A stretch of DNA of 48,916 nucleotides from Actinomycetota bacterium (GCA_036745195.1 DAIOGO010000002.1:23547-72462); one strand, 5' to 3'. Positions 30,065-43,945 are shown, numbered from the stretch's first letter. The notes: generated from the sequence alone by a model not told the origin. Numbers and translations are program-made.

Positions 30065-31171
30065 TCAGCCTCCAGAGGCGCGGAGGGTGGCGGTCAGTTC
30101 CAGCGCCTCACCGCCGCGGATCACGGAGAGGACCACCACGTCGCCGGCCTCGCGATCACGAATCCGAGCGGCCAGGTCGACGATGCCGGTGACCGGGACT
30201 GCATCGACTGCCGTCACGAGGTCACCGACCTCGAGACCGGCCGCTTCGGCGGCGGATCCTGGCGTGATCTCGATCATCACTGCTCCGGCCGGGGACCCGG
30301 CGGCTGCATTCTCGCCCCTGACCCCGAGGAACCCGGGCACGAACTCCTCCCCCGACCGCAGGGCTTCGGCTACCCGGTAGGCCCGATCGATCGGCACGGC
30401 GAAGCCGACACCGTCAGAGGCACCCGACTCGGTGAAGATCGAGACGTTGATCCCGATCACCCGCCCCTCGCGATCGGCCAGCGGACCCCCCGAGTTGCCT
30501 GGGTTGATGGCGGCATCGGTCTGGAGCATCGAACGGGAGTTCTCACCGGCGAAATCGGTCAGCGTGCGGTCCACCGCACTGACGATGCCCGACGTCACCG
30601 TCGAATCGAGGCCCCACGGGCTGCCGAGGGCGATCGCCAGCTGGCCGACTCTGGGCTTCTCGTCCAAGGCCAGCGGCGCCGCCGTGAGCCCCGACTCCTC
30701 GATCTGGACCACGGCAATGTCGGTCACGGCGTCGGCCCCGACTACCGTCCCGGTGACCACCCGGCCGTCGAAGAGGCGCACATCGACCGTTGTGATTCCT
30801 TCCACCACATGAGCGGCGGTCAGGATCCATCCGGCCGAGTCATAGATCACACCCGAGCCGACCCCACCGCCGGTATCGATCTGGACGATCGAGGGCAGCA
30901 ATGCCTCGGCCACATCGGCCACCGGTTCCCCGGAATCGGGGGCGACGAGGGTCGGGGCGGGAGAGTCCGGCGAAGTAGGCTCCGCCGACACCTCGATCTG
31001 CGCCACGGTGGTGGCGGGGGCGGCCGGCTCCTCGGTGTCGGTGAATAGGTAACCGATGCCGACGCCGGACCCGAACAGCGCCAGCACCGTCAGCAGGGTC
31101 GCCAGCCGCCGCCGAACCGGGCCGGCTGGATTCTCATGGATGGTGGTGGTGGGGTCTGTCACGGTCGTCAT
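30065..31171 (-). CDS. HtrA/DegP/PepD-like S1C serine protease with C-terminal PDZ domain
   Basis: 368 aa: N-terminal TM anchor, catalytic triad contexts (TAAHVV; D in the AVTDIAVV block; GNSGGPL), and a PDZ-like C-terminus (GFLGVRGE...GLEVGDLVTAVD). RBS AGGAG at 7 nt. Confidence 0.9.
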   Translation of the reverse strand: MTTVTDPTTTIHENPAGPVRRRLATLLTVLALFGSGVGIGYLFTDTEEPAAPATTVAQIEVSAEPTSPDSPAPTLVAPDSGEPVADVAEALLPSIVQIDTGGGVGSGVIYDSAGWILTAAHVVEGITTVDVRLFDGRVVTGTVVGADAVTDIAVVQIEESGLTAAPLALDEKPRVGQLAIALGSPWGLDSTVTSGIVSAVDRTLTDFAGENSRSMLQTDAAINPGNSGGPLADREGRVIGINVSIFTESGASDGVGFAVPIDRAYRVAEALRSGEEFVPGFLGVRGENAAAGSPAGAVMIEITPGSAAEAAGLEVGDLVTAVDAVPVTGIVDLAARIRDREAGDVVVLSVIRGGEALELTATLRASGG

Positions 31172-31250
31172 ACTGGTCTCCTGCCGGTCCTACACGAAGT
31201 CTCGGAGCCAGAGCATCGCCCAACCCCGGTAAAACCTCCGTAAACCGCCA

Positions 31251-31586
31251 TGCGCCATGCGTCATGCGCCATGCGCCATGCGCCATGCGTCTTGCGCAAT
31301 GCGCCATGCGTCGTGCGTCATGCGTCATGCGCCGTGCGTCATGCGCCGTGCGTCTTGCGCCGTGCGTCTTGCGCAATGCGTCTTGCGCCGTGCGCCATCG
31401 GCCATCAGCCATCGGGCATCAGCCATCAGGCGCTGAGGCCGGCCCGGGAGCGCCGGGATCAGACCTTCACCTCCGAACCTTCAACTTTCAACCTTCGTTC
31501 CGCGTGCATCCTTCACGTTCCTCGTTCATGGCTGATAGCCGATAGCCGATAGCTGATAGCTGACTGCTGATCGCCGATCGCCACTA
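31251..31586. repeat. composite heptanucleotide-array locus C (longest)
   Basis: 26 heptamers in unbroken phase at 31251-31432 (21 x TGCG[T/C][C/T]N, then 5 x TC[A/G]G[G/C]C[A/G]). Hairpin CCCGG-gagcg-CCGGG. An ACCTTCA-type run at 31463-31528. 8 in-phase T[A/G/C]GC[C/T]GA-type heptamers at 31529-31584, ending on the first base of the sensor-kinase stop codon. Confidence 0.9.
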
Positions 31587-32729
31587 GATCCCGGCCAGCC
31601 GGATCGGGACCGGGGCGAGATGTGGCTCATGGTCGATGGGTGGCAGGAACACCACCACCACCGAACCCCCGCCCACCCGGGGCACCATCATCAAGTGCCC
31701 GCCGTGGCTCTCGGCCACCCGCCGGGCGATGGCAAGACCAAGCCCGTGGCTGGAACGGAGCAGATCGGGGTCGAACCCGGGACCACGATCCGCCACCGCT
31801 GCGTAGAACCACTCGCCTTCGGTTCCGGTGGCCAGCTTGATGGCTCCACCGCCGGCGTTGATGGCGTTCTCCATGAGATTGCTCACCGCCCGCGCCACAC
31901 CGATCTCGTTGCCTCTGACGAGCAGTGGTGGGCCGGGTTCGAAGTCGACCGGGATCCTGGCCCTGGCCTCCACGGCCAGTTCCCCCACGATCTCGACGAG
32001 GTCCAGCTCGCTCGCCTCGGCCGCCCCGGCTTCGAAACGGGCTGCCACCAGCAACGCATCGACCATCTCCGACATCCGCTCCCCGGCCCTGGCGACCACC
32101 TCGGCGGTGCGCCGCCATTCGTCCAGGTCGGTGTCTGGATCCGCCAGCGTCACCTCGAGGTTGGATCGCATCACCGCCAGCGGGGTGCGCAGATCGTGTG
32201 AAGTCTGCGCCAGGAACATCCGTTGCTGTCCGAATGCCCGCTCCAACCGGTCGAGCATCCCGTTGAAGGTGGCGGCCAGCTGCCCGAGTTCGCTGTCGGG
32301 ATCGGCGACGTCGATTCGCCGGCCCAGATCCCGGGCCTGGATCTCGCGGGCGACCCGGGTCATCTCACCGATCGGGCGCAACACCCTTCCGGCCGACAGC
32401 CAGCCCATGGCGAGGCTGATGACAAACAGAACCGCCAGAACCACCAGGGTGGTCAGGGTCACCCGATTGAGAACCAGCTGGCGATAGATGGCTTCGACCG
32501 ATTGCACCTGCTCGGGTGTCACCTGTCGGGGAAACACGAAGACCTGGTCGCCGATCCGGATGGCGGCGCCCTCGACCCTGAGCCGCGTCATCGTCTCGGC
32601 CTGGAGATACCGGCGGAGAACCAGGTAGATCGCCCCCAGTGCCAGCGCCCCGGTGCCAAACACCACCGCCGAAGACATCAATGCCAATCGAAAACGGACC
32701 GATCGAAACAGCGTCCTGAAGGCCATCAT
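31584..32729 (-). CDS. two-component sensor histidine kinase (HAMP-HisKA-HATPase, MprB/CssS-like)
   Basis: 381 aa: two TM segments, a HAMP domain, the H-box FLAQTSHDLRTPLA, and N/G-box regions (NLMENAINAG, DRGPGF, GLGLAIA). Confidence 0.9.
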   Translation of the reverse strand: MMAFRTLFRSVRFRLALMSSAVVFGTGALALGAIYLVLRRYLQAETMTRLRVEGAAIRIGDQVFVFPRQVTPEQVQSVEAIYRQLVLNRVTLTTLVVLAVLFVISLAMGWLSAGRVLRPIGEMTRVAREIQARDLGRRIDVADPDSELGQLAATFNGMLDRLERAFGQQRMFLAQTSHDLRTPLAVMRSNLEVTLADPDTDLDEWRRTAEVVARAGERMSEMVDALLVAARFEAGAAEASELDLVEIVGELAVEARARIPVDFEPGPPLLVRGNEIGVARAVSNLMENAINAGGGAIKLATGTEGEWFYAAVADRGPGFDPDLLRSSHGLGLAIARRVAESHGGHLMMVPRVGGGSVVVVFLPPIDHEPHLAPVPIRLAGI

Positions 32730-32751
32730 CGGGGACGGTAGGCGAATCCGG

Positions 32752-33480
32752 CTAAGCCGGCGGTAAACCCGAGCGGATCACGTAACCCCGATTCGGGATC
32801 GTGTGGATGACGGGAGGGGCGCCCAGCTTCTTGCGCAGGTTCGACATGGTGACCCTGACCGTGTTGGTGAACGGGTCGGCCATCTCATCCCAGCAGTGCT
32901 CGAGAAGCGCCTCCTGGCTGAGGACCCGATCGGCATTTCGCATGAGGTACTCGAGCACCGCGAACTCCTTGGCCGTCAGCTCGAGCGACCGGCCTTCCCG
33001 GGAGGCCTTGAAACGCCCGGGATCGAGGACGATCCCGGCCACCTCGATCACGGGAGCGGCGTCGTCGGCCTCCCGCCGGAGGAGCGCCCGCACCCTGGCT
33101 TCCAGTTCGGCGAAGGCGAACGGTTTGACGAGGTAGTCGTCGGCCCCGGCGTCGAGACCCGCCACCCGATCGCCCACGCTGTCGCGGGCGGTGAGCATGA
33201 GGACCCGCGGCCGCACGCCTCCAAAGGGTCGGAGATCACCGCCGGTCACACGCTTGCACAGGTCGAGACCGGTTCCGTCCGGCAGCCCCCAGTCGAGGAT
33301 GAGCAGGTCGTAGGCGGCTGACATGATCTTCTGTTCCGCCTCGACCACCGCCGATGCCGAATCCAGCCCATGACCCTGCCGGCGGAGCCCCTTCACCAGC
33401 GCCGCCGCCAAATCGACCTCGTCTTCGACCACCAGGATTCGCACCGGAGCATGTTGGCCGCCGCGTCGCCCCCGGCGCAA
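32752..33480 (-). CDS. OmpR/PhoB-family response regulator (MprA-like)
   Basis: Receiver domain (ILVVEDEVDLA..., LILDWGLPDGTG, with a phospho-acceptor Asp present) plus a winged-helix trans_reg_C (LTAKEFAVLEYLM...VRVTMSNLRKKL). Start is either TTG 33480 or GTG 33444. Confidence 0.9.
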   Translation of the reverse strand: MRRGRRGGQHAPVRILVVEDEVDLAAALVKGLRRQGHGLDSASAVVEAEQKIMSAAYDLLILDWGLPDGTGLDLCKRVTGGDLRPFGGVRPRVLMLTARDSVGDRVAGLDAGADDYLVKPFAFAELEARVRALLRREADDAAPVIEVAGIVLDPGRFKASREGRSLELTAKEFAVLEYLMRNADRVLSQEALLEHCWDEMADPFTNTVRVTMSNLRKKLGAPPVIHTIPNRGYVIRSGLPPA

Positions 33481-33512
33481 CCTCGGATTGCGGCGATCTA
33501 TCGTCGCGTTCC

Positions 33513-34232
33513 ATGCCGTGGCGGCCGCTGGCCTTCCTGTTCGATCTCGACGGGGTGCTCACCCCGACTGCGGTCGTCCACCGCTCCGCCTGGGCCGAAA
33601 CCTTCAACCGCTTCCTGCAACGCCGGCAGCTCGGGCCGCCCTTCACCGACGGCGACTACTTCGAACACGTCGACGGCAAACCACGGTTCGACGGGGTTCG
33701 CCAGTTCCTGGCCTCACGCGGGCTCCACCTCCCAGAGGGCTCTGCCGACGATCCACCGGGTTTCGACACGGTCCAGGCACTCGGGAATCTCAAGAACGAG
33801 TTGTTTCGAACGGTGCTGTCCCGGGATGGACTCGAACCCTATGTCGGTTCGGTCAGGCTGCTCGGCCTCCTCGACGAGCGAGACATCCCGTGGGCGGTCG
33901 TCTCTTCCAGCGCCAACGCCCGGGACGTGCTGGAGGCGGCCGGTCTGGGCGATCGGACGGCCGTGGTGATCGACGGTCGGGTGGCGGCAACCGAACACCT
34001 GGCAGGCAAGCCCGATCCCGAGACCTTCCTCCTCGCCGCCCGGTTGTTGGGAGTGGAGCCGGAGGACTGTGTCGTCGTGGAGGATGCCCTGGTAGGTGTG
34101 ATCGCCGGCAAGGCCGGTGGTTTTGGCAGGGTGATCGGGGTGGCGCGAGAAGACGACGCCGGGGCATTGGAAGAGGCCGGCGCCGACCGGGTCGTGACCG
34201 ATCTGGCCGAATTGATCGAGGACCTCGAATGA
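33513..34232 (+). CDS. pgmB: HAD-superfamily beta-phosphoglucomutase family hydrolase
   Basis: ATG at 33513 within track ORF 33354..34232. HAD motif I FLFDLDGVLTPT, motif III GKPDPETFL, motif IV VVVEDALVGVIAG. ATGA overlap with the downstream GH65 gene. Confidence 0.8.
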   Translation: MPWRPLAFLFDLDGVLTPTAVVHRSAWAETFNRFLQRRQLGPPFTDGDYFEHVDGKPRFDGVRQFLASRGLHLPEGSADDPPGFDTVQALGNLKNELFRTVLSRDGLEPYVGSVRLLGLLDERDIPWAVVSSSANARDVLEAAGLGDRTAVVIDGRVAATEHLAGKPDPETFLLAARLLGVEPEDCVVVEDALVGVIAGKAGGFGRVIGVAREDDAGALEEAGADRVVTDLAELIEDLE

Positions 34233-36556
34233 TCGGGCGGACCCGCCGCGACCTGCCGGCCGACATCTATCCGGACGATCCCTGGCGGCTCTCGGAGGAA
34301 CGGTGGACGCCTGGTTTCGTCCCGATGACCGAGACCCTCTTCGCCCTTTCCAACGGCAACCTTGGGATCAGGGCAACGATCGAGGATGGCGGCCCGGCTC
34401 ATGCCCGCGGCACGTTCCTCAACGGCTTCCACGAGACATGGCAGATCGAGTATCCCGAGGCGGCCTACGGGTTCGCCACCGTCGGCCAGACCATCGTCAA
34501 TCTCCCTGACCCCTCCGGGATCACGATCACCGTCGACGGGGAGGTTCTCACTGCCGAGGGCGCCAACCACTGCCGCCGCACCCTCGACTTCCGGGTGGGG
34601 GTGCTCGAACGGGACACGACCTGGACCACCAGATCCGGCGTCGGCGTGACTGCCCGGCACCGGCGGCTGGTATCGCTCGAGCAGGCCGATCTGATCGCTT
34701 TCCACCTCGAGATCGAGGTCGACCGGACCGCCGAGGTGACCGTCGGCTCGACAGTGACCGAACATCGGCCGGTGGCGGCACCGGATTCGTTCGACCCCCG
34801 TAAGGCTGCCCGTGTCGGCCATCGGGTGCTGGAACCGGTGAGCCGGTCGCAGGAGGGTGACGTGTCGATCGCCACCTGGCGGACGGCCAACTCGCAGCTC
34901 CCGCTCACCGTCGCCACCTTGCATCGGATCGAGGGGCCGCCCGCCGTGCAGAGCCAGGTCGAGACCGACGACTCATTCGGCCTGGTTACGAGTGCGACCG
35001 TGGGGCCGGACACGCCTTGGCGGATCACCAAGTGGGTGGTGTACCGGCCGGAGGAGACTGCCGGGAACGCACTCGCCTCTCTGGCAGCCGCCGCCTCCTC
35101 CGGCTTCGAGGACATGGCGGCGTCCCAGCGCCGGGCGCTGGCCGCCTTCTGGGATCTGGCCGACATCGAGGTCGAAACCGGCCCCGGCGTCCAGCGGGCC
35201 ATCCGCTGGACGCTCTTCCAGATCTACCAGTCGTCGGTTCATCTGGCGGGACGGTCCATCCCCGCCAAAGGCCTCACCGGTCAGGCCTATGACGGGCACT
35301 ACTTCTGGGACACCGAGATCTACCTGATCCCGTTCCTGGCAGGTGTGGCTCCGGCAGCAGCCAGGGAGGTGCTCCGCTACCGGCACGGTCTCCTCGACCA
35401 CGCCCGGGCCCGGGCGAGAGAACTCTCGGTGGCGGGAGCGCTGTTTCCCTGGAGGACAATCTCCGGAGAGGAGGCTTCGGCCTACTTCCCGGCCGGCACC
35501 GCCCAATACCACATCGACGCCGACATCATTCACGGTCTCCGCCACTACCTGCTCGCCACCGGCGACGACGAGACCCTGTGGGACATCGGTGTCGAGATGG
35601 CGGTGGAGACCGCCCGCATGTGGCGGGATCTCGGCTTCTTCCTCGATGGTTCATTCCACATCCACGGGGTCACCGGACCCGACGAGTACAGCGCCCTGGT
35701 CGATGACAACGCCTTCACCAACCGGATGGCTCGCATGAACCTGCGCTTTGCAGCCGAGTCGGTGGCCAGAATGCAGATCGAACAACCCGCCCGTTTCGCC
35801 CTCCTCGCCGCCAAGCTGGGACTCGGCCCCGAGGAACCGTCCGACTGGTCGCAGGCGGCCGAGGCGATGTTCGTCCCCCATGACCCTGTTCGGGGCATCA
35901 CCCCGCAGGACGCCCACTTTCTGACGAAGGAGGCCTGGGACTTCGCTGCCGTCCCGCCCGAGTCATACCCGCTGCTCCTCCACTTTCACCCTCTCGTCAT
36001 CTACCGCCACCAGGTCCTGAAGCAGGCGGACGTGGTGCTGGCCGATTTCCTCCTCGGAGACGAGGTCCCCCCGGATCTCAAGCGAAGGAACTTCGAGTTC
36101 TACGACCCGATCACCACCGGGGACTCATCCCTTTCGCCCAGCATCCAATCGATCGCCGCCTGTGAAATCGGTGACATGGCGAAAGCGATGGCGCACTTCT
36201 CCAATGCCCTGATGGTGGATCTGGCGGATCTGGCCGGCAACACGGCCGATGGAGTCCACATGGCGTCAGCCGGTGGGATCTGGCTGGCCCTGACCTCCGG
36301 ATTCGGCGGCTTGTCGATCCGCCAGGGTCGGGTCGTCCTCACCCCGCGTCTCCCCGACGGCTGGAGCAGGCTGACGTTCACGACCCGGTTCCGGGGGATC
36401 CTGCTCGAGGTCGACGTCCGACCCGGGCGGCTGAACCTGATGGTGCGAGGAGGCGACTTGACCGTGGAGGTGTTCGACCGTCAAGTCGCCCTCACCGACA
36501 TGGTTCCCGTGACCGTCGAGCGGTCACCGGGACCGGTCAGCCGGCGGCGGCAGTGA
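34229..36556 (+). CDS. glycoside hydrolase family 65 phosphorylase (trehalose/maltose/kojibiose phosphorylase type)
   Basis: In-frame ATG at 34229 of track ORF 33488..36556. GH65 features: LFALSNGNLGIRA, GLTGQAYDGHYFWDTEIY, HITGDIA-like HIDADIIHGL, and GPDEYSALVDDNAFTN. Partnered with beta-PGM as in known GH65 operons. Confidence 0.85.
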   Translation: MIGRTRRDLPADIYPDDPWRLSEERWTPGFVPMTETLFALSNGNLGIRATIEDGGPAHARGTFLNGFHETWQIEYPEAAYGFATVGQTIVNLPDPSGITITVDGEVLTAEGANHCRRTLDFRVGVLERDTTWTTRSGVGVTARHRRLVSLEQADLIAFHLEIEVDRTAEVTVGSTVTEHRPVAAPDSFDPRKAARVGHRVLEPVSRSQEGDVSIATWRTANSQLPLTVATLHRIEGPPAVQSQVETDDSFGLVTSATVGPDTPWRITKWVVYRPEETAGNALASLAAAASSGFEDMAASQRRALAAFWDLADIEVETGPGVQRAIRWTLFQIYQSSVHLAGRSIPAKGLTGQAYDGHYFWDTEIYLIPFLAGVAPAAAREVLRYRHGLLDHARARARELSVAGALFPWRTISGEEASAYFPAGTAQYHIDADIIHGLRHYLLATGDDETLWDIGVEMAVETARMWRDLGFFLDGSFHIHGVTGPDEYSALVDDNAFTNRMARMNLRFAAESVARMQIEQPARFALLAAKLGLGPEEPSDWSQAAEAMFVPHDPVRGITPQDAHFLTKEAWDFAAVPPESYPLLLHFHPLVIYRHQVLKQADVVLADFLLGDEVPPDLKRRNFEFYDPITTGDSSLSPSIQSIAACEIGDMAKAMAHFSNALMVDLADLAGNTADGVHMASAGGIWLALTSGFGGLSIRQGRVVLTPRLPDGWSRLTFTTRFRGILLEVDVRPGRLNLMVRGGDLTVEVFDRQVALTDMVPVTVERSPGPVSRRRQ

Positions 36557-38630
36557 AGAACAGGCGCTGGGCGACGTCGTCGTAGAACAGGCGGTAGCCG
36601 ACGCCGCCCCGGGCGGTGGCCGAGTCGAGTCCGATGAGCACGGGTTTGGAAACATCCAATCCCATCGAGGCCAGCAGGTCTCGCCGTCCCGGTCCATCGA
36701 GATTGGGATCGGCCACTGCGATCATCATCCCCATGGCCTGGAGACCCACCGCATCCGCCTCTGATGGGCCGGTCGGGTCGATGGTCATCGTCACCGTGTC
36801 GACCGAGCCGGCGGCCCCAACCGTGCCCGCCACCGCCACATAGGGAGTCAACTGGAACTCGAACTCTCCCGGAAGCAACGAGGGCAGTGCCAGCTGCGGA
36901 TTGACGGATGCCGCCGTCTCGTTCCAGCGCTTGACGAACTCGGGGGCGGTGAGGGCAAAAGCGGTGGGCTGGAATGGGGCAACCGTCGTCTCCGGAACTG
37001 CCTCGGTGGTGGGCGGGGCGGTGGTGGCAACCGGTGACGTGGAGGGCGTGACCTGTGAGCCATCCACGGTAGGAGTGGGCTGCGCCGAGGTGGTGCCGGT
37101 CGGCTCGGCATCCTGGGTGAGCAGCCGGAAGGCCAGATAACCACCCAGCCCGAGTCCGCCCAGCAGCAGGACGACGCCCGTGAGGATGGCGACCCGTCTG
37201 AGAAAGCCGGGCAGCCGGGATGGTTTGGTCGATGATTCGCGGAGTGATCGCTGCGAGGCGATGATGGCGTCGGCGACAGTGACCGCCTCTTCCTCGTTGT
37301 CGGATTGCCGCCGAAGTGCCTCCACCGCCGCCGCCAGCGAACCGGCGTCGGTCCCGATCTCCTCGTCCGGCGAAGGAGCTTCGAGGGTGACTTCGGGGGC
37401 TGCACCGTCATCTTCCACACGCTCGGCGGCGGGCGGAACGGGGGCGATTCGTCGCCTCCCGAGCCGTTGACCGAAGTTGCGCCGCAACTCCTCGCCCTCT
37501 CCCCCGATCGCCATCACTCGCTCGGTCAGAGACTCGGGGGAATCGACGGCCTTCTCGGTTTGGGCTAGGTCATCCTCGGGGGAGACTCCGGAACCATCAG
37601 CCAGGGCGCCGGCGGGTTCGACCAGCCCGGGCTCGCCACCGAGATCGAGCACATCCTCGTCTGCCGGAACCGGCATGGTCTCATCGACGGGATCGAGCAC
37701 GGTTTGGTGGGGGCCGGGGTCGTCCGCAACCCATCCGGCGTCGGAATCGGGATCGGTTTCGTCAGCGACAGGGACTTCCACCACCGGCGCCTCGGGCTGA
37801 GGGCTCCAGGGCTCCGGTTCCGGGCCGGGATCGATCTCCCAACTCCCCCCCACCCCGTCGAGTCGGTCGTTGTCTGCGTGTTCGGGGGCGATGGAGTCGG
37901 CGACGAATGGCTCGGCAGCCGGCTCGGGACCCGCCGCGATCTCGATACTGGTAGCACTGGAGGAAGCCGGATCCGCCTCCACACCGTCGATCTGGCCGAT
38001 GTCGTCCACCAACACACGCTTCGGCGCCCGGGGCGTCCCCTTGGGAGCCGGGCGAGGCTTCTTGTGTTTGGGAGCCCTCTCAGCCACTTCCTCAACCTGT
38101 GTATCTTCGAGCGTCACCTCGGACGGCGGGGACGCCGCTTCGGAGTCCGCCAACCCTGACTCAGCCACTTCCTCGACCTGTGAACCTTCGAGCGTCACCT
38201 CGGACGGCGGGGGCGCCGCTTCGGAGTCCGCCAACCCTGACTCTGCCACATCGACTTCGGCGCTGCGAGCCCGAGTCTGTTTGGGTTTGGCGGCCCGCGG
38301 TTTCCTGGCAGCCGGTTTCGGGGCAACCTCCGACCCCTCGAGCCCGGTCCTCCCCGAGAGGAACCCGCTCAGGGTTCCCCGGTCGATACTGGCGACCATC
38401 TCGGCAAAGTCACCGTGATCATCCGGGGTGAAGTGGATGGCGTCCCCGTCGACGTGAACGGCAAAGTCGCCACCGCCGTTGGCGCGAATGGTGCAATCGG
38501 CAATCGGCCACGTTCCGATGTCGACCGCACCCGCCGCCACCTGCAACTGATCAGAGGTGACGCGCAGCGCCACCTCCAAGGGAGAGTCGTCTCCGACGGC
38601 GATCCGCCCGGAAAAGGTCTTCGATTCCAT
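36537..38630 (-). CDS. large single-pass membrane protein: uncharacterised N-terminal cytoplasmic domain, long acidic repeat-containing linker, TM, Pro/Thr linker, uncharacterised extracytoplasmic C-terminal domain
   Basis: About 697 aa from ATG 38630 (the track begins one codon earlier at a TTG). TM segment VAILTGVVLLLGGLGLGGYLAF. The N- and C-terminal domains are homologous to those of 39408..40340. Confidence 0.75.
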   Translation of the reverse strand: MESKTFSGRIAVGDDSPLEVALRVTSDQLQVAAGAVDIGTWPIADCTIRANGGGDFAVHVDGDAIHFTPDDHGDFAEMVASIDRGTLSGFLSGRTGLEGSEVAPKPAARKPRAAKPKQTRARSAEVDVAESGLADSEAAPPPSEVTLEGSQVEEVAESGLADSEAASPPSEVTLEDTQVEEVAERAPKHKKPRPAPKGTPRAPKRVLVDDIGQIDGVEADPASSSATSIEIAAGPEPAAEPFVADSIAPEHADNDRLDGVGGSWEIDPGPEPEPWSPQPEAPVVEVPVADETDPDSDAGWVADDPGPHQTVLDPVDETMPVPADEDVLDLGGEPGLVEPAGALADGSGVSPEDDLAQTEKAVDSPESLTERVMAIGGEGEELRRNFGQRLGRRRIAPVPPAAERVEDDGAAPEVTLEAPSPDEEIGTDAGSLAAAVEALRRQSDNEEEAVTVADAIIASQRSLRESSTKPSRLPGFLRRVAILTGVVLLLGGLGLGGYLAFRLLTQDAEPTGTTSAQPTPTVDGSQVTPSTSPVATTAPPTTEAVPETTVAPFQPTAFALTAPEFVKRWNETAASVNPQLALPSLLPGEFEFQLTPYVAVAGTVGAAGSVDTVTMTIDPTGPSEADAVGLQAMGMMIAVADPNLDGPGRRDLLASMGLDVSKPVLIGLDSATARGGVGYRLFYDDVAQRLFFTAAAG
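38083..38250. repeat. in-frame 81-bp tandem repeat (2 copies plus a partial third) inside the 36537..38630 gene
   Basis: 38083-38163 and 38164-38244 are near-identical (a few mismatches), with a third unit starting at 38245. They encode the 27-aa unit EVAESGLADSEAAPPPSEVTLEGSQVE. Confidence 0.85.
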
Positions 38631-38706
38631 CAATGCTGTGTTTCTTCGGCTCCTGAGGAGCGCACCTTGACAGAAGTATGCATCGACCAGGTCGGGGAAC
38701 CGGGGA

Positions 38707-39291
38707 TCACCAACACCCGCCGCTGGCGTTCCAATGGGACCAACCGCCGCCCTCGTACACCAACCAGGCCGCCACCGCCACGTTGGCCACGGGATCGAAC
38801 ACGTCGGATCCGGCCCAGCCTGCCTTGGCCGACCGGGTGCGCCACTGGCTGGCCAGATGCTGGAACAAACCGCTGGCGGTGGAGGTGGGGTTCTTGGCCG
38901 AGGACACTCCCCTCGACTCGCACGAGATCACCCGGACTGCTCGATCGACATCGCCCGGTTCGAAGAACATCTCGACCAGGGGTCGCCAGTCCTCGACGGA
39001 TTCGATCTCGGCGGGGACCAGGTCGTAGGGCCCGGGCGGCGGGGGTGGAGCCGGTTGGACGAGGTCGCCGGGCAGGCACACCGATCCACTCACCGGTGGG
39101 TGACACCCGGTCAGGAGTGGTGAGGGCTCGGCCGGGATGACGGCGTCGAGACCCGCTGCAAACAGGGCGGCGTCGGCCGGGCCCATCACCACGAACAGGG
39201 AAGGAGCGGGTTGGGCGACCGCTCCCCCCGCCGCAATCAAACCGGCCAGGGTGAAAATTCCGATCAGGTAGGAACCGAACGCGCGCATCAC
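38707..39291 (-). CDS. secreted lytic-transglycosylase-like (lysozyme-like/SLT-type) protein
   Basis: Signal peptide MRAFGSYLIGIFTLAGLIAAGGAVA|Q. The C-terminal ISCESRGVSSAKNPTSTASGLFQHLASQW...AAWLVY..GWSHW has the catalytic-Glu context (CES) and the GLFQ motif of transglycosylase-like domains. Start is GTG 39291 or ATG 39288. Confidence 0.65.
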   Translation of the reverse strand: MMRAFGSYLIGIFTLAGLIAAGGAVAQPAPSLFVVMGPADAALFAAGLDAVIPAEPSPLLTGCHPPVSGSVCLPGDLVQPAPPPPPGPYDLVPAEIESVEDWRPLVEMFFEPGDVDRAVRVISCESRGVSSAKNPTSTASGLFQHLASQWRTRSAKAGWAGSDVFDPVANVAVAAWLVYEGGGWSHWNASGGCW

Positions 39292-39407
39292 GAGAACCTC
39301 ACGGTGGGGAATTCCTCGAACAAGGAAGGGAGGCCCCTCAGGGCCGCAAACAGCTTACATCGATGTTGTTCACCATCGCAAGCAGGAAGTGCGCAAAAGC
39401 GAGCGGG

Positions 39408-40340
39408 TCACGGACGCGGTTCGATCCGAAACAACACACTTCCGAACCCGGCCAGGTACTGGAGGCTGTAGCGGTTCGACCCCCAGTCCACCGTGGACTC
39501 CACCGGCTGGAGCTGCGGGTCGTCGGGATCGATGCCGAGTTGCTCGAGGATGGCTCTTCGCCCATCAGGACCCACCACCGGATCGACCGTCGCCATGGCC
39601 AGACCCCAAACCGCCAGCCCCTGTTCGTCGCTCTCGGCTGGACCGTTGGGGTCGAGGGTGATGAGGATCAAATCGAGCGTTCCATCCTCACCGGTCGTGG
39701 CCTGGAGGTAGATCCACTCCGAGAGCCCGACCTCGAGACCGGAGGAAGCGTCGACGTTGGGGAGGGCGGCGCCGACCCCGAGGTCGGCCGAATTGCGGTT
39801 CCAGCGCTCGACGAATTCTGCCGGCTCCAGCTCGAACCAGGGTGTCGCCGGGACGACGGTCGTTGTCGGAGAAGCGGGAGACGCCACCGCCGGCGGATCG
39901 GGACGCTGACTCACCACCAGGATCCCGTAGGCGGCCGCCACCAGGGTGGCCGCCACAGCCGCACCGACCAGCATCCGCCGAACATCGGTAGGGGGCACGG
40001 CCTCGGCTGGGTCCTCGTCGGTCGGGGGCGGAGGCGGGGTATTGGCAGGGAGCAATTTCACCGTCGAGATGCGGTCAGCCAGCGTGGAGGAGACGAACCG
40101 GCCGGCGGCCACGTGGGCAAAGCCGACGGGGTCGTTCGGTTCGAACACCACGGGTTCCCCGTCGATGGAGAGATCGAAGGTCCCGTTCTTGCCGGGAGTG
40201 ACCCGGCAGTAGCGGATCGGCCAGGCCCCGATGGAGGCCCCGTTGGCAACCATCCTGACCGCGTCGGCCCCAACCTCGAGCTCGACCACCACGGCCTCGC
40301 CTTCGGCCAAGGTCATCCGGCCTCGGAAGATGTCGACCAC
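39408..40340 (-). CDS. single-pass membrane protein, short paralog of 36537..38630 (same N- and C-terminal domains)
   Basis: 310 aa, GTG start. TM segment MLVGAAVAATLVAAAYGILVV. N-domain ...IGAWPIRYCRV...FDLSIDGEPVVFEPNDPVGFA; C-domain PAEFVERWN...TLDPNGPAESDEQGLAVWGLAMATVDP..GPDGRRAILEQLGID. Confidence 0.75.
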   Translation of the reverse strand: MVDIFRGRMTLAEGEAVVVELEVGADAVRMVANGASIGAWPIRYCRVTPGKNGTFDLSIDGEPVVFEPNDPVGFAHVAAGRFVSSTLADRISTVKLLPANTPPPPPTDEDPAEAVPPTDVRRMLVGAAVAATLVAAAYGILVVSQRPDPPAVASPASPTTTVVPATPWFELEPAEFVERWNRNSADLGVGAALPNVDASSGLEVGLSEWIYLQATTGEDGTLDLILITLDPNGPAESDEQGLAVWGLAMATVDPVVGPDGRRAILEQLGIDPDDPQLQPVESTVDWGSNRYSLQYLAGFGSVLFRIEPRP

Positions 40341-42826: not shown

Positions 42827-43945
42827 GTGATGCCAGATCCGACCCGATTCTTCGACACCCGGGCGGCGTATCTGATGTTCGTCACCACCACCGACGAGAA
42901 GATCGTCGCCGCCGAGCGGATCGGCCGGGAACTCGACTCGATCCAGCCGACCCAACCCGGTCTGCGGGTGTTCGATGCCGGCATGGGGGACGCCTCCCTG
43001 CTCAGCCACCTGATGCGGCGCATGCACGGGGTCTTTCCTCACATTCCGTGGCTGGTGGTGGGAAAGGAGATCAGCATCGAGGACGTCCGCCAGGCCCTGG
43101 GGCGGATGCCCGAGCGCTTCATCGAGCATCCCGAACTGGTGTGGGTGATCACCAATCTCCGCTTTGAGGATGCCGTCCGGCTCGACGCCGCAGGTGGTGA
43201 CATCGTGTGGCGCGACGTGGCTCTGGAGGGGGACACCAGCCACGCCTTCGCCGAGCAGATTCGAACGCTGGTCCCGGCGCTGGCGGACGACTGGGCGGTC
43301 ACCACCTCGCCCAGGAGCGGCAACCCCATGTACCGGCGGCCGACCGTGCTGGTCCTCTCCCGGGCCGACCGGCGTTTCACGCTCGACGCCGTGATCCCGC
43401 GCCCGGGAGGACGGCCACTCCACTTCGACCTGGTCATCGCGTCACAGGCCTACCGGGCCGCCACCCCGGTCGAACGCAAGGTGCGAATGGTGATTGCCCC
43501 GCTCGCCAGGGCCCTTGCCCCGGGGGGCCGGCTGATCGGGATCCAGGCCCACGGCGATGATCCGGCCGAGGAGATCGTTCGGTCCCTCTGGCCCGACTTC
43601 GAGCCCTTCCCCCACACCCGGCACGACATCCTCGCCGAAGCCCGCCGCCAGCTCGGAGACCGCATCGACCTGGTCTTCCTCGATCTCGAGGACGCCGACT
43701 CACACCTGCGTTACCGCCTCCATGCCATGCCGTCGGAGTCCGCAGAGCACATCGGGACCTCGACGGTGCTGGCGGCCTGGAATGCAGCCGCCTATGTCGC
43801 CCAGATCGACGACGCCCGGCTCACCGAGGCGCTGGCGGACAACCGGTACGCCGCCGCCACCCGGGAGGTGATGGACCGTCACGGGGAGATCTGGTTCATC
43901 GACGAGTCCTTCGTCGTCGCCCGGTCACCCTCACCCGCCCGGTAA
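42827..43945 (+). CDS. hypothetical protein with weak class I SAM-methyltransferase-like motifs
   Basis: 372 aa. RVFDAGMGDASLL resembles MTase motif I, and FDLVIASQAY...LAPGGRLIGIQ resembles the post-II/III region, but the two are separated by about 190 aa. Start is GTG 42827 or ATG 42830. Confidence 0.5.
   Translation: MMPDPTRFFDTRAAYLMFVTTTDEKIVAAERIGRELDSIQPTQPGLRVFDAGMGDASLLSHLMRRMHGVFPHIPWLVVGKEISIEDVRQALGRMPERFIEHPELVWVITNLRFEDAVRLDAAGGDIVWRDVALEGDTSHAFAEQIRTLVPALADDWAVTTSPRSGNPMYRRPTVLVLSRADRRFTLDAVIPRPGGRPLHFDLVIASQAYRAATPVERKVRMVIAPLARALAPGGRLIGIQAHGDDPAEEIVRSLWPDFEPFPHTRHDILAEARRQLGDRIDLVFLDLEDADSHLRYRLHAMPSESAEHIGTSTVLAAWNAAAYVAQIDDARLTEALADNRYAAATREVMDRHGEIWFIDESFVVARSPSPAR

Follow-up and report, generated by a model that had tools for sequence, protein, structure and literature searches.

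Paralogous bitopic membrane proteins with a predicted PH-like domain encoded on either side of an SLT-like gene in an Actinomycetota genome

FtsEX-dependent control of cell wall hydrolases (with RipC, PcsB, CwlO and EnvC) relies on membrane proteins that act on an enzyme outside the cell. FtsEX combines an ABC ATPase, FtsE, with FtsX, a permease of four transmembrane (TM) helices with a large extracytoplasmic loop, and the enzymes concerned are NlpC/P60 or CHAP endopeptidases. SOS-induced division inhibitors such as YneA of Firmicutes and ChiZ (Rv2719c) of mycobacteria are proteins with a TM helix and a LysM domain that are encoded beside lexA, and MprAB-PepD and CssRS-HtrA are envelope- or secretion-stress loci. 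Soils, sediments and waters harbour Acidimicrobiia in abundance, and to our knowledge almost nothing is known of how their wall is built and remodelled. SteA-SteB of the Corynebacterineae are described as a membrane pair, encoded by adjacent genes, that acts on an extracytoplasmic peptidoglycan-cleaving enzyme (PMC6705760). Here a locus of three genes at positions 36537-40340 of a 48,916-nucleotide stretch of DNA from an Actinomycetota bacterium (GCA_036745195.1, DAIOGO010000002.1:23547-72462; this whole stretch is referred to as the window) is compared with these systems. The outer genes, A and C, encode a pair of related membrane proteins, and gene B between them encodes a protein related to SLT-type lytic transglycosylases.

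The likeness of this locus to FtsEX-dependent hydrolase control and to SteA-SteB lies in the concept of membrane proteins acting on a hydrolase outside, and is a functional analogy only. In contrast to the ATPase and four-helix permease of FtsEX, the proteins encoded by A and C each contain a single TM helix, and whereas the FtsEX-type enzymes are endopeptidases the product of gene B is SLT-like. FtsEX-type components were not found, there being no ABC or FtsX Pfam match in A or C and none among the annotated neighbours. A and C represent the long and short orthogroups of an undescribed protein family which is absent from Pfam, NCBIfam and the PDB: neither domain of the two proteins gave a Pfam or NCBIfam match above threshold in the window proteins and ten diverse relatives, and PDB sequence-profile searches for the family returned nothing. 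The family probably works at the cell wall, and judged from gene context in these uncultured organisms its likely role would be that of membrane-tethered partners of wall hydrolases. The three genes are as follows.

39408-40340, minus strand: gene C, open reading frame (ORF) of 310 aa, short-type family member, GTG start at 40340
38707-39291, minus strand: gene B, ORF of 194 aa, predicted secreted or signal-anchored SLT/lysozyme-like muralytic protein
36537-38633, minus strand: gene A, ORF of 698 aa, long-type family member

The ORFs were found where a preliminary description, made from the DNA sequence alone, had placed three co-oriented minus-strand genes, and are separated by intergenic gaps of 116 bp (C to B) and 73 bp (B to A). 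Pairwise alignment of the two outer proteins, which that description had proposed as a check on their kinship, was carried out with BLASTP and revealed two independent significant segments, one between the N-terminal domains (52 bits, E=2e-11, 32% identity over 75 aa) and one between the C-terminal domains (82 bits, E=1e-21, 36% identity over 151 aa). The paralogy of A and C extends to both domains. The two hidden Markov models (HMMs) of the family also each matched both proteins, the values for gene A being E=2.4e-38 with the N-domain model and E=1.4e-62 with the C-domain model. The GTG start of gene C (40340, minus strand) is separated by only 50 bp from the ATG of hrpB (40391, plus strand). 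An alternative ATG at 40316, with GAGG 4 nt upstream, was chosen by gene callers for several relatives, giving 302-aa forms; the GTG start is favoured because the F-R-G-R motif is conserved in the paralog and in orthologs that have no Met at the second site.

The domains and segments of the two membrane proteins were assigned as listed here.

40050-40340, minus strand: gene C residues 1-97, cytoplasmic N-domain, PH-like beta-sandwich in the AlphaFold2 model
39912-39974, minus strand: gene C residues 123-143, TM helix, the sole Kyte-Doolittle 19-residue window above 1.6 in the protein
39849-39911, minus strand: gene C residues 144-164 (approximate), Pro/Thr/Ser-rich extracytoplasmic stalk, read from the sequence
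39411-39848, minus strand: gene C residues 165-310, extracytoplasmic C-domain, alpha/beta in the AlphaFold2 model
38340-38633, minus strand: gene A residues 1-98, cytoplasmic N-domain, predicted PH-like from its BLASTP and HMM matches
37194-38339, minus strand: gene A residues 99-480, cytoplasmic linker, acidic and poorly conserved, with three conserved motifs at its end
38079-38249, minus strand: tandem duplication of 81 bp (27 aa) in the gene A acidic linker, 2.1 copies with 94% match (Tandem Repeats Finder)
37128-37193, minus strand: gene A residues 481-502, TM helix by hydropathy, with a conserved small-residue motif
36972-37127, minus strand: gene A residues 503-554, Thr/Pro-rich stalk, read from the sequence and of the family's stalk composition
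36540-36971, minus strand: gene A residues 555-698, extracytoplasmic C-domain, assigned by BLASTP to C and the C-domain HMM

Hydropathy analysis gave one hydrophobic segment in each protein, at residues 481-502 of A and 123-143 of C. In A the 20 residues preceding the TM helix contain six Lys/Arg and the 20 following contain none, and no N-terminal signal peptide was detected in A or in C. Because of the single helix, the charge bias in A and the lack of a signal peptide in both, the two proteins are placed with the N-terminus inside and the C-terminus outside, in agreement with the shared bitopic architecture of the preliminary description. The same arrangement extends to the family, in which one TM helix was predicted between the domains in 141 of 146 two-domain members and the median stalk is 36 aa long, with 23.5% Thr and 18.6% Pro. 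The TM helix of the long type carries the packing-type motif G-G-L-G-L-G-G, which is conserved among long-type orthologs.

The acidic insertion that had been noted between the N-domain and the TM helix of the long paralog is a linker of 375 aa with 22% Asp+Glu and a net charge of -51. Like those of the other long forms it is presumably disordered. Its three motifs that are conserved among long-type orthologs are S-L-T-E-R-V (residues 368-376), E-L-R-R-N-F-G-Q-R-L-G-R-R-R-I-A (residues 382-397) and T-V-A-D-A-I-I-A-S-Q-R-S-L-R-E-S-S, which starts at residue 452. Across the family the linkers form a continuum of 54-515 aa, and the long cytoplasmic linkers carry a net charge of about -18 per 100 aa. 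The linker of gene A is evolving by recent repeat expansion, since its close relatives P0015 and P0016 carry a single copy of the 27-aa repeat.

The N- and C-domains of 15 short and long homologs were aligned and both domains were modelled with AlphaFold2. The N-domain model (pLDDT 82) contains seven strands, at positions 3-10, 16-23, 27-32, 35-41, 45-49, 55-59 and 62-68, followed by a C-terminal helix at 71-81. When the model was compared with the PDB using Foldseek, the top 50 matches were all of PH, FERM-F3 or PTB type, with probabilities of 0.98-1.00 and TMq values of 0.43-0.68. The N-domain is therefore assigned a PH-like fold by predicted structure only, and the earlier claim that it is novel has to be given up. 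Like other members of the PH-like superfamily the modelled domain is a seven-stranded beta-sandwich capped by a C-terminal helix. It differs from them in belonging to no Pfam PH family, in being fused through a linker to the TM helix of a bacterial envelope protein and in carrying a near-invariant cysteine. No Pfam family of PH type was matched at E<=10 by the 15 N-domain sequences or at E<=1 by eight long-type N-termini. Membership of DUF7092 (PF23368) was considered and rejected as unproven: the best score was 19.9 bits, below the gathering score of 24.5, from one short-type N-domain aligned over positions 15-76 of the 77-position profile, and matches were confined to three of the 15 N-domain sequences, one of 23 full-length short-type proteins and none of eight long-type proteins.

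The near-invariant cysteine lies in the motif W-P-x-x-x-C and corresponds to C45 of gene C (motif at 40206-40232) and C47 of gene A (38493-38519), where residues 39-47 read I-G-T-W-P-I-A-D-C. A redox or metal role for this residue is conceivable. The cysteine is lost in a distant clade which carries E-N-L-R-Q-W before the TM helix. In gene C the PH-like sandwich is followed by the helix S-S-x-L-A-D-R-I (residues 84-98). A helix of the form S-L-[AT]-[DE]-R-I is common to both types, the acidic insertion of the long type being located between the PH-like domain and this helix.

The C-domain, of about 145 aa in the family, was modelled with a pLDDT of 89.3 and a pTM of 0.86, and has the topology a-b-b-b-a-a-b-b-b (a, helix; b, strand). 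Its best PDB matches in Foldseek had TM-scores of 0.33-0.36, and the best match among the viral models of BFVD was an unannotated phage protein with a TM-score of 0.51. No credible relative of the C-domain was found by Foldseek against the PDB and BFVD, by PDB profile searches or by Pfam scans of individual members, and the view that this domain fits no known family was thus borne out. A match to the type III secretion chaperone InvB (probability 0.95, TM-score 0.33, root-mean-square deviation 10 Å) was rejected as non-homologous. Set against the PDB and BFVD, the model suggests that the C-domain is a new extracytoplasmic fold that has no recognisable relative at present.

The size of the family depends on how it is searched for. 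Word-index homolog searches gave nine homologs of gene C and ten of gene A, and the small family that these numbers imply is an artefact of word indexing. When the combined alignment was used for an exhaustive HMM search, at least 683 cluster representatives (50% identity) were matched at E<=1e-3, and 119 of them at E<=1e-30. The domain census covered the best 167 relatives out of the 683 cluster representatives: both domains were present in 146, the C-domain alone in 21 and the N-domain alone in none, and most of the 21 are likely to be fragments that start inside the linker. All source names of family members are "Acidimicrobiia bacterium" or a soil, sediment or wetland metagenome, the sequence of the window itself recurs in wetland, sediment and soil runs, and the family appears to be restricted to the Acidimicrobiia. 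A scan of GTDB genomes with a narrow pattern gave two species, a figure that is no measure of the distribution of the family.

The two orthogroups were separated by the motif of the N-domain, the distance between C-domains having failed to separate the paralogs. The short-type motif in the PH-like domain, G-x-W-P-[LIV]-[KR]-Y-C-[RK]-V, was found in 33 sequences, all of 302-355 aa and including gene C, and the long type carries W-P-x-x-[DE]-C-x-I. Long-type proteins also share two conserved juxtamembrane motifs, E-L-R-R-x-F-G-Q-R-L-x-R-R-R and T-V-A-D-x-I-x-A-S-Q-R-x-L-R. Several paralog clades were distinguished, apparently with several paralogs per genome.

Two features were assigned within gene B.

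39214-39291, minus strand: gene B residues 1-26, signal peptide or signal anchor ending A-V-A before Q, with a hydrophobic segment at residues 4-27
38710-38994, minus strand: gene B residues 100-194, lysozyme-like domain, defined by the invariant columns of an alignment of six orthologs

The preliminary description had the middle gene encode a signal-bearing, transglycosylase-like protein with the motifs C-E-S and G-L-F-Q, and this was upheld by comparison with relatives. The N-terminal signal segment is conserved in orthologs, and the invariant residues of the six orthologs comprise C124-E125-S126 (nt 38914-38922), G141-L-F-Q144 (nt 38860-38871) and the terminal C193-W194. A second invariant cysteine pair, C63/C72, is located in an N-terminal region, about 70 aa long, that is lineage-specific. 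The window protein scored 20.7 bits against Pfam SLT (PF01464), 0.6 bit below the gathering score of 21.3, and 18.2 bits against SLT_3, and all six orthologs matched both models, with best E-values of 3.1e-6 and 3.8e-6. A PDB profile search gave weak matches to EmtA of E. coli and to the phiKZ gp144 lytic transglycosylase. Stronger-looking PDB matches to designed TPR proteins were rejected as summed repeat artefacts of about 3 bits per stretch. Gene B shares with the SLT/family-1 lytic transglycosylases (PF01464, PF18896) the catalytic-type E-S motif, within C-E-S, and a G-L-F-Q that corresponds to G-L-M-Q; it differs from them in having no third motif of the A-Y-N-x-G type and in its lineage-specific N-terminal region. 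The placement of the flanking cysteines resembles that of Rpf-type domains, but gene B is not a member of the Rpf model (Transglycosylas, PF06737), to which the window protein gave no match at E<=1 and one of the six orthologs matched with E=0.031. On these sequence features gene B is assigned to the lysozyme/SLT superfamily as a predicted secreted or signal-anchored protein, for which muralytic activity is predicted. The orthologs from the loci L001, L003, L010, L014 and L016 of the context scan below are 52-68% identical to it.

Gene order was examined in 29 loci (L numbers) using HMMs for the N-domain, the C-domain and SLT-B together with the neighbouring proteins of the window. The arrangements are listed below by locus, the genes named in order of transcription from the short paralog.

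Window, L001/2/7, L003-6, L014, L016/L023, L019 and L021: short, SLT, long
L017 and L018: short, SLT, then the end of the contig
L010: short, SLT, response regulator, histidine kinase, HtrA, without the long paralog
L009 (464-bp spacer, no SLT ORF), L015/L025 and L013: short, long, without SLT

The trio is syntenic in relatives, as the preliminary description would lead one to expect: its order was found in seven independent lineages, the window included, and the short gene is followed by SLT in two more (L010 and L017). Of the 12 lineages whose sequence can be seen downstream of the short gene, nine have SLT next to it. The short-type proteins at these loci are 27-37% identical to gene C, and the short and long genes always occur in the same order where both are present. 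The upstream neighbour differs in L010, L013, L014, L019 and L021, and the trio or pair persists there. In one clade (L009, 5257-6534; L015, 6668-7981; L016, 6701-8065) the short-type C-domain has no D-P-x-G, D-P or Arg motifs. Two of the three lineages of this clade are without SLT (L009 and L015), and L016 is similarly degenerate yet retains it; that loss of the C-domain motifs tracks loss of SLT is thus suggestive, and is confounded by phylogeny.

Most loci share a wider block in which hrpB is divergent from the short, SLT and long genes, GH65, in some loci accompanied by HAD, lies beyond them in convergent orientation, and a two-component system with a protease follows in the direction of the pair. 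In the window this last part is represented by three genes, each assigned by Pfam and NCBIfam matches.

32752-33480, minus strand: OmpR-class response regulator
31584-32729, minus strand: HAMP/HisKA histidine kinase
30065-31171, minus strand: HtrA/Do-family protease

This regulator-kinase-protease part (30065-33480) keeps its linkage to the pair in different lineages. In L010 (8729-11802) the three genes are co-directional and directly follow short and SLT, and in L013 (9863-11074) HtrA directly follows the pair. The locus defines a sizeable family, of at least 683 50%-identity clusters, which is found repeatedly beside small wall-directed proteins and a two-component system of envelope-stress type with HtrA.

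The reading that we tentatively prefer, and regard as possible at somewhat less than an even chance, is that the A and C paralogs form a heteromeric membrane complex. Short and long proteins would assemble in the membrane, their stalked outer domains would extend into the wall, where they would hold, position or gate a partner that acts on it, and the PH-like domains would serve as the cytoplasmic docking end. At the window locus this partner would be the SLT-like enzyme, and at a second locus of the family it would be a LysM protein. The proposal is made because SLT adjacency recurs, because one paralog lies beside a LysM protein and because the order of the paralogs is fixed, the last of which fits a pair that works together. 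Also counted in its favour are the paralogy in both domains, the common one-helix architecture with its stalk, the two fold models, the motifs, cysteine pairs and signal peptide of gene B, the packing-type motif in the long-type TM helix and the low-depth metatranscriptome contigs that map to C and A. Heteromer formation, binding of gene B or of peptidoglycan by the C-domains and any direction of signalling are inferred. The LysM protein is encoded at L011 (6630-8290), where a gene for a 98-aa protein with a TM helix and a LysM domain is divergent from lexA and is followed directly by a 429-aa distant family member and then by nrdR. This is a second, independent pairing with a small wall-directed, in this case peptidoglycan-binding, protein, and the L011 member may be an SOS-linked paralog of the family. 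The 98-aa protein and its position beside lexA resemble YneA and ChiZ, but the likeness concerns the neighbour of a distant paralog, not the window genes, and the family member itself has no LysM domain. Several observations weigh against the heteromeric complex. SLT is absent between the pair in three lineages (L009, L015/L025 and L013) and so is not obligatory, and in L010 the short and SLT genes are present without the long paralog. Because synteny covers the whole block, SLT is not marked out as the partner by gene order alone, and part of the linkage may reflect nothing more than descent within one clade. The members of the most distant clade, with E-N-L-R-Q-W before the TM helix (L012, 6645-8974; L029, 6276-9464), adjoin glgC/glgB and no wall enzymes. 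In the C-domain model the invariant residues D-P-x-G, D-P, R and G-x-D lie at helix ends, and may be structural residues, not a binding site. The broader suggestion of the preliminary description, that the trio is a transmembrane control system for peptidoglycan cleavage, stays plausible by virtue of the paralogy, the topology, the SLT-like gene B and the synteny, and is weakened by the loss of SLT in three lineages, the location of distant members elsewhere and the synteny of the entire block. A bolder version, in which short and long would form an undescribed heterodimeric transmembrane device, PH-like inside the cell and with a new wall-facing fold outside, by which Acidimicrobiia would switch small wall-directed proteins (SLT-like or YneA-like LysM) on or off from the cytoplasm, instead of or alongside FtsEX-type systems and with the acidic arm of the long paralog as a regulatory element, is a long shot.

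The same genes can be accounted for in other ways. The pair could be accessory sensors or scaffolds for the adjoining OmpR-class two-component system and HtrA, with the SLT-like enzyme as one output or a passenger, so that the locus would be an envelope-stress module. An OmpR-class regulator, a HAMP/HisKA kinase and an HtrA/Do protease encoded together beside the pair resemble the MprAB-PepD and CssRS-HtrA loci, and regulator, kinase and HtrA occur in that order near the pair in nearly every locus. The co-directional L010 genes (short, SLT, regulator, kinase and HtrA) are operon-like with gaps of 57-102 bp, HtrA directly follows the pair in L013, and the linkage outlasts changes of the upstream neighbour in L010, L013, L014, L019 and L021. 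In the window and most loci, however, a convergent GH65 gene, with or without HAD, separates the pair from the two-component system, and the two are therefore not on one transcript. Neither the kinase nor the regulator of the window gave a specific, equivalog-level NCBIfam match, to MprA/MprB, CssR/CssS or otherwise, and distant family members have no two-component system nearby. We know of no description of MprAB-PepD or CssRS-HtrA systems with PH-like bitopic partners, and consider a stress module of this kind unlikely. To about the same degree we doubt that the pair is a morphogenetic or division scaffold independent of SLT, in which the family would consist of bitopic organisers of the envelope, the PH-like domain would recruit cytoplasmic division or elongation factors, the outer domain would make contact with the wall or its synthases, and SLT would be an incidental frequent neighbour. 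Persistence of the pair without SLT in three lineages would be explained in this way, as would the paralog located between a YneA-like LysM gene next to lexA and nrdR, and the several paralog clades, apparently several per genome; against it, SLT is still adjacent in nine of the 12 lineages with a visible downstream region, there is no dcw-cluster context, and no homology to a known divisome or elongasome protein was detected in Pfam, NCBIfam or PDB profile searches. It seems more improbable still that the three genes are independent, remaining neighbours only through common ancestry within a single Acidimicrobiia clade in which this region rearranges slowly. Functionally unrelated genes (hrpB, a 372-aa hypothetical protein, GH65 and HAD) are equally syntenic and SLT can be lost, both of which favour such an origin. 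Against it, the short-(SLT)-long order outlasts replacement of the upstream flank in five lineages, at 27-37% protein identity, the three genes run in one direction, 73 and 116 bp apart, and the order of the paralogs never changes. Control of the SLT-like enzyme by the pair, as in the preferred heteromeric complex, would represent a new way to restrain wall-cutting enzymes from inside the cell; it would also extend the PH-like fold to a membrane-tethered role in bacteria and bring a new fold to the extracytoplasmic domains. Should there be no such control, the two domains and the two orthogroups are still cleanly defined and could be deposited as families.

A membrane anti-sigma factor of the zf-HC2/RskA type was also considered for the family and was rejected, as no domain match was obtained and no sigma-factor gene is present among the annotated neighbours. 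Gene C gave a score of 20.6 bits against CU044_5270 (NCBIfam) over its Pro-rich and TM part, the cut-off of that model being 100. Rfam searches found no RNA family anywhere in the window, and so no ydaO-type riboswitch upstream of B, and a scan of promoters and terminators gave neither a signal above shuffled expectation nor any consensus promoter or terminator. In four sediment metatranscriptomes, contigs of low depth match the linker of gene A (37280-38212) and the 5' part of gene C (39889-40318), with contig ends at 40312 and 40318 near the start of gene C. These contigs, in which carry-over of DNA is possible, are weak evidence for expression of A and C; no contig from the four metatranscriptomes matched gene B.

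The member of the distant clade at L012 directly follows a gene for a 98-aa zf-UBP protein. In the window the following gene was also found to be part of the conserved surroundings.

42827-43945, plus strand: conserved 372-aa hypothetical protein, syntenic beside hrpB in L001, L003, L009, L016 and L023

This protein gave no Pfam or NCBIfam match. On the other side of the trio, the HAD hydrolase and GH65 ORFs (33354-36556, plus strand) extend too far in the 5' direction. Within a 1022-aa ORF the GH65 domains begin at residue 271, and relatives are 770-800 aa long; the HAD stop (34232) probably abuts the true start of GH65. The two genes probably encode a coupled pair of a beta-phosphoglucomutase-like protein and a GH65 phosphorylase, convergent with gene A, and the 3' ends of GH65 and gene A overlap by 20 bp.

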